Origin: a virus | Direction: 5' to 3' (one strand) | Virus genome (UHGV): UHGV-1980648 | DNA length: 12,883 nucleotides | Shown here: positions 303-10,606 of the stretch, piece by piece | How positions within the stretch are numbered: position 1 is the stretch's first letter | Layout of the letters: each line of letters begins with the position of its first letter | Notes under the pieces: generated by a model | What the model was told of the DNA's origin: nothing | What the model saw: the letters and a program-made list of their open reading frames with translations, nothing else | Databases searched by the model: none | Position numbers and translations under genes: made by a program

Positions 303-764
303 CTACTGGTTACGTTTCTTTAGTGCCAGCATGTTCTCGAAGGCTTCCTCGTAGAGCTTGTTTAGTCCACGTAGCTGGTTAAGGAGTTTGGCTTTTTCTG
401 ACGCAGGTAGAATCTCGAAGAGGTTAAGTAACTCTGCCTGTTCTTCATTGACCAGCCTCCATCCTTTGCCTGAAAAGTTATCATCATAAGTATCTGATGA
501 TCTTACATAATTCATTAAGTCTTTAAGGTCTTCTCGAATGTCCTCTGGTTTTACCTTTAACAGAGCCGCAAATTTTAGCGCAGCGTCGGTATTTACCGGT
601 ATCTTGCCGTTCAGATACTGGCTAACGGTGCCTTGAGATTCGAATCCCAACAACTCAGCCGCCAGCTCTTGAGTCAGCTTCAGCTCTTTTTTTCTTGCAT
701 TCCATGCGGCTTTTAAATTCTTGCTCGCTTCTGGAGTTGCAATCACTTCGCGTGTTTTTTTCAT
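303..764 (-). CDS. Phage repressor, XRE-family HTH, CI-like but without an S24 peptidase (autocleavage) domain
   Basis: 153 aa; N-terminal HTH LTQELAAELLGFESQGTVSQYLNGK; C-terminal helical region with no Ala-Gly/Ser-Lys peptidase motifs; divergent from the Cro-like gene; start ATG at 764 has almost no leader, as with lambda cI from pRM. Confidence 0.75.
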   Translation of the reverse strand: MKKTREVIATPEASKNLKAAWNARKKELKLTQELAAELLGFESQGTVSQYLNGKIPVNTDAALKFAALLKVKPEDIREDLKDLMNYVRSSDTYDDNFSGKGWRLVNEEQAELLNLFEILPASEKAKLLNQLRGLNKLYEEAFENMLALKKRNQ

Positions 765-4405: not shown

Positions 4406-5080
4406 TCATATAGAGGCTGAATCTGATCTTTTTTGTTCACGTCTGGCTTCCACCATTGCAGGCAGAGTGAAGGCGTAGACTAAAAACATTTCGGTAAAAC
4501 TCAGGATCTGGCTTGCCTCAATTGGTGTGAAAACTTCATCTGTATGAACTGCTTTATTGGCATCAATTCGTACAATATGAGCCCATTCCTTCATCTGTTC
4601 AGTGATCAGGCCTTTTTTGTAAATCATCTGAATACGTTGCGACAGCGATTCTTTTCCTGCTTCATCGCCGAGCAGTTTTTTCGTGGAGATATCGAGGACT
4701 CTGCGACAAAGAATAACCACTGTGTCGTACCGCCTCCTCTGTAAATCCTCTTTTGCCTCAACAAAAGTACGGTCTGCAACCGGGGGCGTATATTCTGGTG
4801 CGGTAATTTTTTTGACCACAGGATAGATCTTGCGGAAACGGTACTGGCTATTTCCTGAAATCAGAATATCGAGGTCTTTTTTCTGGCTTTCCGCCATGGG
4901 ACCGTGATAGTGGTCTGATGGGATTTCAACAATAGCAACACCTCCTCGATGACAACTTCTGCATACAAAAGCGACGTTAAAAAAAGGTGTTTTTTCAATT
5001 TGTTTTTCGGCAAATGCCTCAATAACAGCTCGCTCTTTTAAACAGTGCGGGCATGTGATATCAAAGGAGACTAAACCCAT
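4406..5080 (-). CDS. Zinc-ribbon plus DUF4145-like domain protein; candidate defence / abortive-infection cargo gene
   Basis: 224 aa from the ATG at 5080 (GAGGAA RBS); N-terminal CPHC...x26...CRSC zinc ribbon; C-terminal helical region LSQRIQMIYKKGLITEQMKEWAHIVRIDANKAVH resembles DUF4145 from memory; opposite orientation to the flanking phage operons. Confidence 0.6.
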   Translation of the reverse strand: MGLVSFDITCPHCLKERAVIEAFAEKQIEKTPFFNVAFVCRSCHRGGVAIVEIPSDHYHGPMAESQKKDLDILISGNSQYRFRKIYPVVKKITAPEYTPPVADRTFVEAKEDLQRRRYDTVVILCRRVLDISTKKLLGDEAGKESLSQRIQMIYKKGLITEQMKEWAHIVRIDANKAVHTDEVFTPIEASQILSFTEMFLVYAFTLPAMVEARREQKRSDSASI

Positions 5081-5324
5081 GGATATTCCTCGCGAAATTA
5101 AAGAAATTAACGAAATCATTGAGGTTACTGATCGCCCCGAGTTTACCCTCATGCGTCGTTATGAAACAGGAACCGACGAACAAAAATACATCATGGTTGC
5201 AGCATTGGCTGTGATGGCGATAGAAAGGGAGCGAAGGGAAAAGGACGTAATGGTTATTCCTGAGAGAAATGATTCACCGGATTTGAGATGGCAGGAGCCG
5301 GAGTGGGATGTGGTAATCCGGTGA
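5079..5324 (+). CDS. Small acidic hypothetical protein (81 aa), divergent from the zinc-ribbon gene
   Basis: ATG 5079 with AAGGAGA RBS 8 nt upstream; its start codon overlaps the minus-strand start of the 4406-5080 gene within CATG; no recognisable domain. Confidence 0.3.
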   Translation: MDIPREIKEINEIIEVTDRPEFTLMRRYETGTDEQKYIMVAALAVMAIERERREKDVMVIPERNDSPDLRWQEPEWDVVIR

Positions 5325-5378
5325 TTGATATTTCTCTGGGGTAAAGCGCCGCCAGAATGACGGCGCGGTAGTGGAGAG

Positions 5379-5687
5379 TTAAACGAAGCGGATCTGGAGT
5401 TTTTTCCCTGTAGCACGGGCGAATTTTTTCAGTGTGGCAAATGATGGGCCGCTTGTACCTGATGCAAGATTGCTTTCCATTCTGGTTATCGCAGTCGCTT
5501 TTGTTCCCATACGTTCAGCAACTTCAGCCTGGGTTAAGCCAGCTTCTTTTCGTGCTGCCAGCATTTCATCAAGTAGTGCGAATTCATCGGCGATGGCGTC
5601 GTATTCTGCTTTTACTGCGGGGTTAGACAACATTTTTTCTACCATTTCATCGTGTGTCATGGTAGGTGGGGTACGTTTACCAGTCAT
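5379..5687 (-). CDS. XRE-family HTH antitoxin (HigA-like)
   Basis: 102 aa; HTH LTQAEVAERMGTKATAITRMESN; AAGGAGG RBS; overlaps the upstream toxin gene by 11 nt. Confidence 0.8.
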   Translation of the reverse strand: MTGKRTPPTMTHDEMVEKMLSNPAVKAEYDAIADEFALLDEMLAARKEAGLTQAEVAERMGTKATAITRMESNLASGTSGPSFATLKKFARATGKKLQIRFV

Positions 5688-6006
5688 GCTTAACCTCCTT
5701 CATTCTGGTTTCAGCTTTTCTAAGCTCGGCAGGTGGAGTTTTTTGCGTTTTCTTTACAAAGCTATGCAACATAATGATTCGCTTTCCTTTTAGCGTGCAG
5801 TAAAAAACACGCCCTATGCCTTCCGAGCCCTTAAGGCGGATTTCAAACAAACCGTCGCCAAATGCCTCTGTATGCGGGGAACCAAGATTAGCTCCGTAAA
5901 TACGCATTTTCTCCGTGTACCGAATGTACCGGGCTTGTAAGGTCTCAGGAAGAGAAAGGATCTCAGCTTCAACCTCGTCACTGTAGTATTCGATAATGTA
6001 GTTCAT
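5677..6006 (-). CDS. RelE/ParE-superfamily toxin, phage Gp49-like / HigB-like
   Basis: 109 aa from ATG 6006 (alternative ATG at 6018); MNYIIEYYSDEVEAEILSLPETLQARY...FGDGLFEIRLKG...RVFYCTLKGKRIIMLHSFVKKTQKTP is typical of this family; toxin-first order with HTH antitoxin. Confidence 0.75.
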   Translation of the reverse strand: MNYIIEYYSDEVEAEILSLPETLQARYIRYTEKMRIYGANLGSPHTEAFGDGLFEIRLKGSEGIGRVFYCTLKGKRIIMLHSFVKKTQKTPPAELRKAETRMKEVKHDW

Positions 6007-6048
6007 GAGAGTAAACATAACAAATTTGTTATATACATTCAAGGTATG

Positions 6049-6078
6049 TTGACGACAACACATATCCGGGATTATATT
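6049..6078 (+). promoter_or_regulatory. Rightward sigma70-type promoter restarting the nin-region operon
   Basis: TTGACG (6049-6054), 18-nt spacer, TATATT (6073-6078); its -35 overlaps the -35 of a divergent minus-strand promoter for the toxin-antitoxin operon (TTGTCG, complement of 6053-6058, with -10 TATATA at complement of 6030-6035). Confidence 0.4.
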
Positions 6079-6140
6079 CTTCGCACGCCAGCAAAATCTG
6101 GCGTCGGGATTTGCACCCCGGATATTCAACCGCGACAGAC

Positions 6141-6162
6141 ACACGCCGCGAGCGTGTTTTTT
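6141..6162 (+). terminator. Intrinsic terminator or attenuator in the leader upstream of the ORF6N gene
   Basis: ACACGC-cgcga-GCGTGT followed by TTTTTTGTT; preceded by two further hairpins at 6086-6103 and 6104-6120. Confidence 0.5.
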
Positions 6163-6326
6163 GTTGTCGTAAGCACACGCACATCTGAATTATGGTGGGG
6201 CGTATGGGGGAGCCGAAAGGCTCGCCGGTTGGTTGATCCGGTAGTGCAAACCCTGTACGTCTCACCACCCAAAGATTTGCACCTGACGGTGGTGATAGTT
6301 AAATTCATCAACCAGAGGGCGTTGTC

Positions 6327-7028
6327 ATGGCGACTCAAATTTCCGTTGAAACTCTTTCCCCAATTGCCTACAACCAGATCCCCGTAATTACTACAGAATT
6401 ATTGGCGCAATTGTATGGCACTGAAACAGTCAATATAAAAATGAATTTTTCCCGTAACTCTGCGCGATTTGTACAGGGAAAACATTTCTTTAAGTTGGAA
6501 GGGAATGAACTACGTGAGTTTAAGCACAGACTATCTTTAAGCGAGTCTGTTAGCCGCGAGGTAACAGAAAGTTACTCTGTGAAAATCGCCCGCAATGTTC
6601 GCTCCCTCATCCTCTGGACAGAACGCGGCGCAGCCCGTCACGCAAAAATGCTCGAAACCGATCAGGCGAGGGAAGTGTTCGAAAAACTGGAAGACTGCTA
6701 TTTCAGCCAGGGAAAAACAGCACCAACCGAACAGCAGCCGCAGATTCAGCCACAATTCACAGCCGAGGAAATCATCCTCCTTTGCTACATGCAACTCTGG
6801 ATGGAAAAAGCCCAGGACCTTAGCAAGCAGCTGTACCCCATAATGAAAGAGCTGAACTCCTCATACACGAACAAGCTGTATGACATTGCGTTTGAGACCA
6901 TCTACATGGTGACGAAGAACAGAGACGCGCTACTAAGGGAGGTAACACGTCTCGACATGTCAAGTTCCGTTATCCAGCGGGCCATGCCAATGCTGAAAAG
7001 CCTGCGGGCAAGACAATTTGAATTCTGA
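6327..7028 (+). CDS. ORF6N-domain protein, putative antirepressor-like regulator
   Basis: 233 aa; N-terminal IPVITTELLAQLYGTETVNIKMNFSRNSARFVQGKHFFKLEGNELREFK...LWTERGAARHAKMLETDQAREVFEKLEDCYF fits the ORF6N pattern from memory; GAGGG RBS. Confidence 0.55.
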   Translation: MATQISVETLSPIAYNQIPVITTELLAQLYGTETVNIKMNFSRNSARFVQGKHFFKLEGNELREFKHRLSLSESVSREVTESYSVKIARNVRSLILWTERGAARHAKMLETDQAREVFEKLEDCYFSQGKTAPTEQQPQIQPQFTAEEIILLCYMQLWMEKAQDLSKQLYPIMKELNSSYTNKLYDIAFETIYMVTKNRDALLREVTRLDMSSSVIQRAMPMLKSLRARQFEF

Positions 7029-7033
7029 AACTA

Positions 7034-7058
7034 AAGGAGCTTCGGCTCCTTTTTTGTT
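7034..7058 (+). terminator. Intrinsic terminator between the ORF6N gene and ninB
   Basis: AAGGAGC-ttcg-GCTCCTT followed by TTTTTTGTT. Confidence 0.55.
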
Positions 7059-8544: not shown

Positions 8545-8779
8545 TATTCAGCAGGTGCCTGAACGCATGGCTTTATTCAGGTCGTCTGGAAAAGCGCATG
8601 AGCAGCGTAATAGCGGAGTTCATGGCGAAGAGTATATGAACAGATTATTCGAATGCTATATGAGACTGAAGCACGGAGATCGCTATGACCTGACACGTGA
8701 TGCTGACGGTTTCTACTGCCGTGAAGTTGTGAAACGAATGTTTGAAGTGTGGTGTCATTGTAAAGGATGGGGGCTGTGA
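8537..8779 (+). CDS. Hypothetical Cys-rich protein, translationally coupled to the next gene
   Basis: ATG 8537 (MRDIQQV...) with AAGGGGA RBS, overlapping the ninH stop; 80 aa; its stop overlaps the next start as TGATG. Confidence 0.4.
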   Translation: MRDIQQVPERMALFRSSGKAHEQRNSGVHGEEYMNRLFECYMRLKHGDRYDLTRDADGFYCREVVKRMFEVWCHCKGWGL

Positions 8780-9393
8780 TGCGGCTAACCCCAGTATTCG
8801 GCATGGTTAACTTTATTAATGATGCTCATTTCCGCCGCATATGGAGGCATCCGAAGAAAATCATTAACTCTCGTCAGAAAGCATGGGTTCACTACATGCT
8901 ACAGGTATGGGGAAATGTTAACGCTGGTGATGATTCTCCTTGTGGTGCAATTAACGTTATTGGGCGACTGATGATTCGCAGTCAGTGGAGCGATGACAAA
9001 GCTAAGCAGATTGAGTCTGTTGTCATGCGTCTGTATGAAGAAGACGGACTACGTGGAGATGAACTCCATCAGAAAGCCCGAGAACTGGTCATCCCTCAGT
9101 CATCGGCAGGTAATATCATTGCTCTCGCCAAAGAATCCGATGATGCTGCTTTCGTTGAACGTGTGATGGTTGAGACCTTTCATCGTGAAAGCCCTGTCCG
9201 TGATGTAGCTATTAGGCGATATTGCAATCGCGACAGCACGCAAGATATCGCCAGGATGATTTCTCAGATAACAGGAGTTGATATTCAGTATTGCCGGAGG
9301 CGGGTCGTGTGGTGCGAGAGGGTCCTTGATTCAGAAATGTTTTATGCAATGAAGCGAGAATTGGAGAAAGAACTTCTAGTGATTGCTGGATGA
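8779..9393 (+). CDS. Putative late-gene antiterminator (Q-position protein); identity by position only
   Basis: 204 aa from ATG 8779 (the ORF track starts at 8767); last gene before a pR'-like promoter and tR'-like terminator; no clear similarity to lambda Q by eye. Confidence 0.35.
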   Translation: MRLTPVFGMVNFINDAHFRRIWRHPKKIINSRQKAWVHYMLQVWGNVNAGDDSPCGAINVIGRLMIRSQWSDDKAKQIESVVMRLYEEDGLRGDELHQKARELVIPQSSAGNIIALAKESDDAAFVERVMVETFHRESPVRDVAIRRYCNRDSTQDIARMISQITGVDIQYCRRRVVWCERVLDSEMFYAMKRELEKELLVIAG

Positions 9394-9926: not shown

Positions 9927-10123
9927 TTGTCTGGCTGCCGGAGAATTTGTTAAAAATTGCATCGCGTGGTGAATCCCCCTCAGCGGCGGGGCATCTGGCA
10001 AAGTGTATGATCCAGCGAACATGCAAATTCAGTAGCCAGGCTGAATTTACCGGGAGGCACCTGGCACCATGCGACAGACAGAAATTAGGCTATACTTCAG
10101 CCCCTCTCCGGAGGGGCTTTTCT
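9927..10123 (+). repeat. Paralogous unit A: promoter-like box, structured core, intrinsic terminator (candidate small RNA gene)
   Basis: TTGTCT (9927-9932), 17-nt spacer, TTAAAAAT; core closed by CGCGTGGTG (9963-9971) pairing with CACCATGCG (10065-10073); internal hairpin AAATTCAG/CTGAATTT; terminator at 10099-10123. Confidence 0.5.
10099..10123 (+). terminator. Intrinsic terminator of unit A
   Basis: GCCCCTC-tccg-GAGGGGC followed by TTTTCT. Confidence 0.6.
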
Positions 10124-10312
10124 GTGCAGGATGTGTCACAGTTTCCTGAATTCTGAGTACTGTCCTGTTACTCAGGGTGCTATATTTTCTGACGTGATGA
10201 AAGTCTGCCGGAAGGCGGAACGTATCGGAAATGACCCAGTAGAGAAAACGTTGACTCAGATACCGATGCTGAGTTACCGGGAAACCGGCATCACATGACC
10301 GCTATCCTTCCA

Positions 10313-10395: not shown

Positions 10396-10606
10396 TTGTC
10401 TGGCCAGCGGGAAGTTTGTTAAAAAAATATGGCATGGTGAATCCCCCTGTGCGGAGGGGCATATCAGCGACAGGTGTTTGGTCACACCCCTTATCCTTTC
10501 TGGTGCGGGTTCAGGTGCTGATACTGAACTCACCGGGAGGCACCCTGCACCATGCATGAACGGTACATAGCGCTACTCTCCAGCCCCTCTCCGGAGGGGC
10601 TTTCTT
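10396..10606 (+). repeat. Paralogous unit B: promoter-like box, structured core, intrinsic terminator (candidate small RNA gene)
   Basis: TTGTCT (10396-10401), 17-nt spacer, TTAAAAAAATAT; core closed by GCATGGTG (10432-10439) pairing with CACCATGC (10548-10555); internal hairpin GTTCAG/CTGAAC; shares blocks TGGTGAATCCCCCT and CACCGGGAGGCACC with unit A. Confidence 0.5.
10582..10606 (+). terminator. Intrinsic terminator of unit B
   Basis: GCCCCTC-tccg-GAGGGGC followed by TTTCTTGTTG. Confidence 0.6.

Follow-up and report, generated by a model that had tools for sequence, protein, structure and literature searches.

The promoter, hairpins and terminator at 6049–6162 are a copy of IsrK, a known phage small RNA, and thus an ordinary element and not a new one. 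We put the probability at about 80% that the region holds isrK of a lambdoid prophage, which would open an RNA immunity module of the immI type. The regulator that seems to be missing from the region is most likely not a protein but a C4-like antisense RNA encoded 25 nt downstream of IsrK (6188–6272). IsrK is the leader of a known RNA-controlled switch, made up of the C4 antisense RNA and an antirepressor gene, which helps decide whether a prophage stays dormant. Membership in the IsrK and C4 families, the gene order, and a three-way covariation of the sites a'/a1/a2 and b'/b1/b2 are all shown at the level of sequence. The characterised homologue is the isrK-orf45-anrP-isrJ locus of the Salmonella prophage Gifsy-1 (Hershko-Shalev et al. 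2016, PMC4825925).

Genomic context and layout of the module

The window, by which is meant the whole 12,883-nt stretch of UHGV virus genome UHGV-1980648, is the immunity-to-late region of a lambdoid prophage, as judged by the gene order obtained from Rfam, Pfam and PHROG matches:

303–764, minus strand: repressor-like gene, then cro-like, cII-like, O, P and ren-like genes
4406–6006, leftward: cassette of a DUF4145 gene, an HTH antitoxin and a Gp49/HigB-like toxin
After the cassette: isrK, C4 and ant, then ninB, ybcO, rusA, ninH and a Q-like gene
Right end: two STnc100 RNAs and a NanS-p-like esterase

The features of the module itself, with those nested within it, are as follows:

6049–6078, plus strand: predicted sigma-70 promoter (TTGACG 6049–6054, 18-nt spacer, TATATT 6073–6078), the counterpart of Gifsy-1 PisrK and of the P1 promoter P1c4/P51b
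6085–6162, plus strand: IsrK-family small RNA of about 78 nt, a leader with the a1 and b1 sites (Rfam RF01394)
6085–6104, plus strand: hairpin 1, ACGCCAG-CAAAAU-CUGGCGU, with a 7-bp stem and a 6-nt loop
6105–6120, plus strand: hairpin 2, with a loop that holds site a1
6110–6116, plus strand: a1, TTTGCAC, in the hairpin-2 loop of IsrK, the exact complement of a'
6126–6131, plus strand: b1, TCAACC, in the single-stranded IsrK linker, complementary to b'
6133–6169, plus strand: predicted outer helix, CGACA (6133–6137) with TGTCG (6165–6169), enclosing the terminator and U-run
6141–6163, plus strand: intrinsic terminator, hairpin ACACGC-CGCGA-GCGTGT (6141–6157) and T6 (6158–6163)
6188–6272, plus strand: C4-type antisense RNA, equivalent to Gifsy-1 "orf45"/STnc1160 (Rfam RF01695)
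6192–6236, plus strand: remnant of "orf45", 14 codons, ATG 6192 to TGA 6234
6231–6237, plus strand: b', GGTTGAT, in the hairpin-2 loop of C4
6244–6250, plus strand: a', GTGCAAA, in the 3' internal loop of C4
6276–6282, plus strand: a2, TTTGCAC, the second target of a'
6307–6313, plus strand: b2, ATCAACC, adjoining the Shine-Dalgarno sequence of the antirepressor gene
6315–6319, plus strand: Shine-Dalgarno sequence GAGGG of the antirepressor gene (start ATG 6327)
6327–7028, plus strand: antirepressor gene with ORF6N and P22_AR_C domains (Pfam), homologue of Gifsy-1 AnrP
7033–7052, plus strand: terminator-like hairpin with T-run, closing the isrK-C4-ant unit

At the sequence level the IsrK architecture is complete: a promoter of its own, two hairpins in the 5' part and a terminator of the intrinsic type. 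An Rfam scan of the whole window matches isrK (RF01394) over model positions 1–77 of 77, at 75.4 bits against a gathering threshold (GA) of 50 (E 5e-15). In a more permissive scan, the c4-a1b1 family (RF03163, the a1 and b1 targets of C4) is also matched at 6072–6124, just below its threshold (42.2 bits, GA 46.7, E 2e-9), and this match overlaps the 5' half of isrK both in the window and in Gifsy-1. The promoter scores 10 of 12 and is the top plus-strand promoter-like match in the window, which holds 14 such matches in all, no excess over the 13.1 expected. The distance from its hexamers to +1 equals that in Gifsy-1 PisrK and in the annotated P1 promoter P1c4/P51b. A stretch of 23 nt at 6140–6162, GACACGCCGCGAGCGTGTTTTTT, is identical in the window and in Gifsy-1 IsrK. 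The fold of 6085–6165 has a free energy of −27.9 kcal/mol (z −2.6), and 1 of 200 shuffled sequences folds as well. The promoter, three hairpins and terminator that a first-pass annotation of this DNA had proposed are thus all present where it had placed them. Its candidate terminated small RNA of about 75 nt also finds a match, as an RNA of about 78 nt is predicted and the Gifsy-1 member of the family is a stable, trans-acting small RNA (PMC4825925).

C4 (RF01695) is matched at full length by the same whole-window Rfam scan, at 74.4 bits against a GA of 45. Its fold has a free energy of −44.6 kcal/mol, and the conserved 3' CACCACC is present. The 10-mer GATTTGCACC has only two copies in the window, at a1 and at a2. 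The antirepressor gene lies directly 3' of C4, with no icd-like small gene between them. Its product matches the PHROG family phrog_377, anti-repressor Ant (5e-81).

Several mechanically called open reading frames cross the region, at 6046–6387 on the plus strand and at 6029–6268, 6126–6338 and, with a GTG extension, 5677–6144 on the minus strand. A protein-coding reading of these frames was dismissed because translation from the ATG at 6006 already gives a whole Gp49 toxin domain (Pfam), and because the region carries paired, RNA-type substitutions and coordinated swaps of the a and b sites. ARAGORN found no tRNA or tmRNA in the window, the structured stretch 6188–6272 included.

Covariation of the a and b sites

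The arrangement was compared across 18 loci, which comprise the window, Gifsy-1, P1, two APSE phages, a Yersinia phage, phage cdtI and 11 E. coli loci (ten lambdoid and Stx phages and the closest prophage, from strain G1/2). Tandem isrK and C4 elements, 20–26 nt apart and above the Rfam cut-offs, occur in all 14 of the other phage loci. Gifsy-1 likewise has an isrK element above the cut-off, and P1 has the same tandem with an isrK match below it (35.1 bits).

Within IsrK, an independent MAFFT/RNAalifold alignment of 18 sequences shows each of the six predicted hairpin 1 pairs maintained by two-sided changes in one or more sequences. The outer helix around the terminator is predicted in 17 of 18 loci with differing sequences, and it can form only in read-through RNA.

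The antisense segments of C4 covary with the IsrK sites and with sites just 5' of the antirepressor start codon. The a' heptamer exists in 10 distinct types among the 18 loci. Sixteen of 18 loci carry its exact complement in the hairpin-2 loop of IsrK, at position 26 (23 in one shorter IsrK), and all 18 carry it again no more than 7 nt past C4; none of 260 non-cognate pairs match. The b' region is more variable still, with 17 distinct types. Here the mean length of the match to b2 is 8.0 nt for cognate and 4.5 nt for non-cognate combinations, and that to b1 is 6.6 nt and 4.1 nt, respectively. The b2 site abuts or overlaps the Shine-Dalgarno sequence or the start codon in 16 of 18 loci; with automated placement, no Shine-Dalgarno-adjacent b2 is evident in the remaining two, Stx2a_F403 and cdtI. 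The prophage of E. coli G1/2 offers a close comparison, for it has the same flanks and promoter as the window and carries a different a/b type (TTAGGAA/GAAACC), with all sites changed together.

Folding of the 261-nt read-through RNA gives −103.8 kcal/mol (z −4.5), and the middle of IsrK (positions 13–47) is predicted to pair in cis with the 3' half of C4. Duplexes of the C4 core reach −30.2 kcal/mol with the cognate IsrK and −27.0 kcal/mol with the cognate ant leader, compared to non-cognate means of −23.4 and −19.2 kcal/mol. However, RNAcofold does not predict the a/b contacts when full-length C4 is combined with IsrK or with the ant leader, and the full-length duplex of C4 with the ant leader (duplexfold) is matched or beaten by 35 of 300 shuffles. 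Since whole-molecule thermodynamics does not support the a/b contacts, covariation is relied on instead.

Proposed mechanism and competing readings

The module runs in the order promoter, IsrK (a1, b1), C4 (b', a'), a2 and b2 at the ribosome-binding site, and antirepressor gene. The C4-like RNA would pair with a2 and b2 and so keep ribosomes from the start of the antirepressor gene, in the way that P1 C4 acts at icd. IsrK, through a1 and b1, would bind these segments of C4 in competition, both from within the long RNA (in cis) and as the free short RNA (in trans), so that the ratio of short IsrK to C4 may set antirepressor production. The transcription start site, the efficiency of termination and the processing of C4 in the window are transferred from the homologues and should be read as probable by analogy.

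In Gifsy-1, most transcripts from PisrK end at the IsrK terminator, which leaves a stable RNA of about 77 nt, IsrK; a fraction continues past it into "orf45" and anrP as a long mRNA that is translationally silent (structure A; PMC4825925). Processing of the orf45 region yields STnc1160, an RNA of about 80 nt. When provided in trans, IsrK pairs with that region and raises anrP translation 139-fold, while IsrK point mutants lose trans activation; activation of anrP leads to antQ expression and prophage induction (PMC4825925). Two published pairs of compensatory mutants, G28A/C162U and G31A/C159U (Gifsy-1 transcript numbered from IsrK +1), coincide exactly with base pairs of a1 with a', and the AUG of orf45, at A107, corresponds to position 5 of C4. 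The Gifsy-1 "orf45" is therefore a C4-family RNA, and the mutant pairs likewise identify the published helix b-I as the pairing of a1/b1 with a'/b'.

The Gifsy-1 PisrK drives anrP transcription through the IsrK terminator (Table 1A, PMC4825925). The first-pass annotation had held that, unless the terminated RNA is itself the product, the ORF6N, nin and Q genes need read-through of this hairpin; this stands for the ORF6N gene, since the Gifsy-1 terminator that is read through has the same sequence, but not for the nin and Q genes. No link was found between the latter and the promoter at 6049–6078, and another terminator, at 7033–7052, lies past the antirepressor gene. By analogy with lambdoid phages, pR would ordinarily serve the nin and Q genes and would lie upstream near the cro-like gene; no pR was located here.

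A different account is the one published for Gifsy-1, in which short IsrK opens the long transcript, ribosomes load on orf45 and translation of the antirepressor is coupled to that of orf45, with the C4-like fold being incidental. We consider this improbable as the explanation of the window. In its favor, AUG and stop mutations in orf45 cut the IsrK-dependent activation of anrP, otherwise 114-fold, to values of 8- to 39-fold (Table 1C, PMC4825925), and IsrK is reported to facilitate 30S binding at the orf45 ribosome-binding site (PMC4825925). The lowered activation with a stop codon in orf45 means that translation of that region matters, at least in Gifsy-1. Moreover, both orf45 AUGs, at 6192 and 6204, are conserved in the window. 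However, the window ORF ends at 6234 after 14 codons, 90 nt before the ant AUG, and across 17 loci the equivalent ORF has 8–45 codons or is fused to ant, in varying frames, with its conserved residues coinciding with the C4 stems. The Gifsy-1 authors are themselves reported, in a review, to have noted conserved nucleotides and variable amino acids, and the mutated Gifsy-1 bases sit in the 5' stem of C4, where they may act through RNA structure. An orf45 that runs up to ant with translational coupling is a trait of the Gifsy-1 mechanism and not of the RNA family model, and it is not found in the window. Because the ORF ends so far before ant and its length varies across loci, coupling from orf45 to ant is unlikely, on the comparative sequences, either in the window or as a general mechanism, and these data suggest that the published coupling cannot be general. 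As the orf45 equivalent has only 14 codons here, the activating step in the window is likelier to be relief of ribosome-binding-site occlusion than translational coupling. Constitutive expression of extra orf45/STnc1160 strengthened IsrK toxicity in Gifsy-1 (PMC4825925), which a simple model in which C4 represses and IsrK titrates does not predict.

About equally improbable is attenuation of the P4 type, in which a C4/CI-like RNA acting on nascent a1/b1 and a2/b2 would control termination, at the IsrK terminator or in a Rho-dependent manner downstream, and not translation. In P1, C4 binding also causes polarity on ant, which speaks for such a component. The layout of target, antisense and target is that of P4 seqA-CI-seqC, and in Gifsy-1 IsrK in trans lifted a transcriptional fusion 8-fold (Table 1B, PMC4825925). 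This is nonetheless small beside the 139-fold translational effect, a Gifsy-1 co-expression test was unsupportive (PMC4825925), and a1 and b1 (6110–6131) do not overlap the terminator hairpin (6141–6157). Attenuation and translational control are mutually compatible models.

Less probable again is that the short RNA is a by-product of attenuation with no function in trans, the leader being of importance in cis alone. Short leader RNAs that end at a terminator are indeed common, but it was plasmid-borne IsrK that activated anrP in trans in Gifsy-1 and point mutation that abolished this (PMC4825925), and the window retains the sequence of the terminator as well as the sites for pairing.

Finally, the first-pass annotation compared hairpin 1 to boxB of a nut site, at which an N-type protein would let polymerase read through the terminator; this is suggested by a visual likeness (an A-rich loop on a GC stem, downstream of a promoter) and by the lambdoid context of cI, cro, cII, O, P and Q genes, but it has next to no chance of being correct. 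Lambda boxB has a stem of about 5 bp and a GAAAA-type (GNRA-like) pentaloop bound by N, whereas hairpin 1 has a 7-bp stem and the hexaloop CAAAAU. The same hairpin, loop included and with a covarying stem, is conserved in P1 and in APSE phages, at module positions unrelated to pL or pR, and to our knowledge these phages have no lambda-type N system. No boxA lies nearby: the closest match to a CGCTCTTTA-like boxA with one mismatch is at 5031, about 1 kb away, and the window holds 4 such matches compared to 9 expected. In addition, the 3' strand of hairpin 1 belongs to the experimentally supported IsrK:C4 pairing (C18:G173, PMC4825925). The annotation was correct that no protein factor is recognisable in the window (the position expected for a lambda-type N, left of the repressor gene at 303–764, falls outside it), but the cause would be that the cognate regulator is an RNA.

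Distribution and comparison with known systems

The isrK-C4 module is already known, as IsrK, C4 and c4-a1b1 are curated RNA families (Weinberg et al. 2010, PMC2864571) and a homologue has been characterised. The isrK and C4 pair is already annotated in other phage records, such as APSE-7 and Stx2 phage F039. Homologues are found in 318 phage records and in 447 of 5426 complete E. coli genomes. None of the latter contains an exact copy of the 291-nt region, the closest being 94% identical; phage PhiR12_1 is 97.8% identical to the window region, and the exact b'-a' 23-mer of the window also occurs in 11 IMG/VR contigs.

We lean, by a small degree, towards regarding the IsrK-orf45-AnrP circuit of Gifsy-1 and the c4-icd-ant immI circuit of P1 as one system. 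IsrK would then be the terminated copy of a1/b1, acting as an anti-antisense decoy against C4, "orf45" would be the C4 RNA and not a conserved gene, and the many a/b types would divide lambdoid, Stx, APSE and P1-like phages into heteroimmunity classes. The papers searched still describe IsrK and c4 as two distinct regulators. Rfam already implies that IsrK and c4 overlap, through RF03163. An explicit statement that they form one system, with orf45 as a non-conserved gene, is a modest clarification and not a discovery. In practice, the identification is of use mainly for annotation. For the closest E. coli prophage, the RefSeq record has no ncRNA at the matching position, and several phage records place ORFs, or stretch Ant, across IsrK and C4. 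The comparison also suggests that, in Stx and other lambdoid phages, the a/b sites of C4 determine the specificity with which the antirepressor is controlled and, through it, that of prophage induction.

The window resembles Gifsy-1 in its promoter geometry, its three-hairpin RNA, the 23-nt terminator sequence, the 25-nt spacer and the C4-like "orf45" region. In Gifsy-1, isrK, C4 and c4-a1b1 are found by Rfam in the same arrangement, between a Q gene and anrP. The ORF6N antirepressors are homologous (62% identity over the aligned N-terminal 156 amino acids), and the predicted cis pairing in the read-through RNA of the window is structure A of the Gifsy-1 paper. The two differ in their a/b types, TTTGCAC/ATCAACC in the window and TTGGCGT/ATCACCG in Gifsy-1, and in the length of orf45 (14 codons compared to 45). 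The window module is located between a toxin-antitoxin pair and ninB, whereas that of Gifsy-1 is downstream of the Q gene, and no match to isrJ is found 3' of the window antirepressor.

The immI operon of P1 and P7 reportedly encodes the C4 antisense RNA together with its targets a1, b1 and a2, b2 (Citron and Schuster 1990/1992; Weinberg et al. 2010). The order in the P1 GenBank record is promoter P1c4 (P51b), a1, b1, the 77-nt C4 RNA, a2, b2 and icd-ant, and within P1 C4 the hairpin-2 loop holds b' while a' occupies the internal loop on the 3' side. A terminator-like hairpin ends the P1 leader, which gives the weak isrK match (35 bits). In P1, C4 is processed by RNase P from a read-through precursor and blocks the ribosome at icd. 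The window shares with P1 the order of promoter, a1, b1, c4 (b', a'), a2, b2, ribosome-binding site and antirepressor operon, a C4 covariance-model score above the cut-off, and a b2 at the ribosome-binding site. Unlike P1, it has no icd gene between C4 and the antirepressor, its antirepressor has no similarity to P1 Ant1, and no C1 operator was identified in the window; its c4-a1b1 match also falls slightly short of the Rfam cut-off.

The immunity system of satellite phage P4 (CI RNA, seqA, seqC) offers a third comparison. There CI acts through premature transcription termination, and its targets are replication genes, unlike the antirepressor gene of the window module. What the window shares with P4 is an antisense RNA that would be processed from the transcript that also holds its complementary sites, one upstream and one downstream of it. 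The Gifsy-1 authors draw this parallel themselves and liken their system to P4 seqA/CI, with no mention of P1 c4 (PMC4825925).

Predicted folds of the IsrK and C4 region

Two structures are predicted in the transcript that carries the small RNA IsrK and the antisense RNA C4. In the first, CGACA (6133-6137) pairs with TGTCG (6165-6169), forming a helix around the hairpin and U-run of the IsrK terminator. This helix is predicted at the same position in 17 of the 18 compared loci, P1 included, and is built from different sequences at other loci (GCGCAT/ATGCGC, CGATACA/TGTATCG, GCGTAC/GTACGC and CGGACA/TGTCCG). Only the read-through RNA is able to form it, and the predicted helix may serve as a processing signal or as a folding insulator.

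The second structure spans the C4 3′ end (6262-6295), where TCACCACC (6262-6269), which makes up the 3′ side of the stem closing C4, is predicted to pair alternatively with GGTGGTGA (6288-6295), producing a hairpin that carries the target site a2 in its apical part. All 18 loci are predicted to form this hairpin, which is mutually exclusive with the mature C4 fold and so may act as a switch between precursor and processed RNA.

The same region has been read as protein-coding in some deposited annotations. In PhiR5_2 (L006 517-639), a “hypothetical protein” call covers IsrK, while in Stx1_132418 (L012 264-1178) and cdtI (L015 40-1111) a CDS for Ant or a “transcriptional regulator” is stretched upstream across C4 and IsrK. 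These calls are probably artefacts of an open frame through the C4 region.

Neighboring genes and RNAs

Several other features lie on either side of the module in the window:

5379-5687, leftward: HTH antitoxin
5677-6006, leftward: Gp49/HigB-like toxin
6017-6032: perfect 16-bp palindrome ATAACAAATTTGTTAT, flanked by the toxin start and the isrK promoter -35 element
9934-10127, + strand: STnc100 (RF02076) copy 1, 138.7 bits
10403-10612, + strand: STnc100 (RF02076) copy 2, 129.9 bits
10814-12805, + strand: 663-aa protein with DUF1737, SASA and DUF6645 domains

The palindrome is a possible operator for the antitoxin; if so, about 40 bp would be common to both divergent promoters. The STnc100 copies stand in tandem 3′ of the Q-like gene (8767-9393), and each is closed by an identical terminator hairpin, AGCCCCTCTCCGGAGGGGCT (10099-10118 and 10582-10601). 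PasD sRNAs of Stx phages were linked to STnc100 in a 2026 preprint. No stx-like domain was found among the window ORFs scanned. The 663-aa protein resembles NanS-p type sialate O-acetylesterases, a gene type that occupies the corresponding place, downstream of stx, in Stx-phage maps.

Mobility, possible specificity exchange and the P1 immI leader

Mobile within phage genomes, the isrK-C4-antirepressor module is placed between the toxin-antitoxin pair and ninB in the window (6049-7052), after Q in Gifsy-1 (L003 34000-34375), after dam/ninE in several Stx2 phages (L007-L009), and beside Bro-N genes in APSE (L001, L013). The antirepressor families coupled to isrK-C4 (ORF6N, Bro-N and P1 Ant1/2) are unrelated to one another.

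The E. coli G1/2 prophage (L004 1540-1835), whose RefSeq annotation contains no ncRNA at this locus, is near-identical to the window (6040-6335) in flanks and promoter but differs in immunity type (a = TTAGGAA, b = GAAACC), with a coordinate change at every site. This pattern suggests that otherwise similar prophages swap specificity cassettes.

The P1 immI leader (L018 231-312) scores 35.1 bits against the isrK model, under the cut-off, and 51 bits against the c4-a1b1 model. Its layout, 5′ of c4, is like that of IsrK and includes a terminator-like hairpin with a T-run on its 3′ side.
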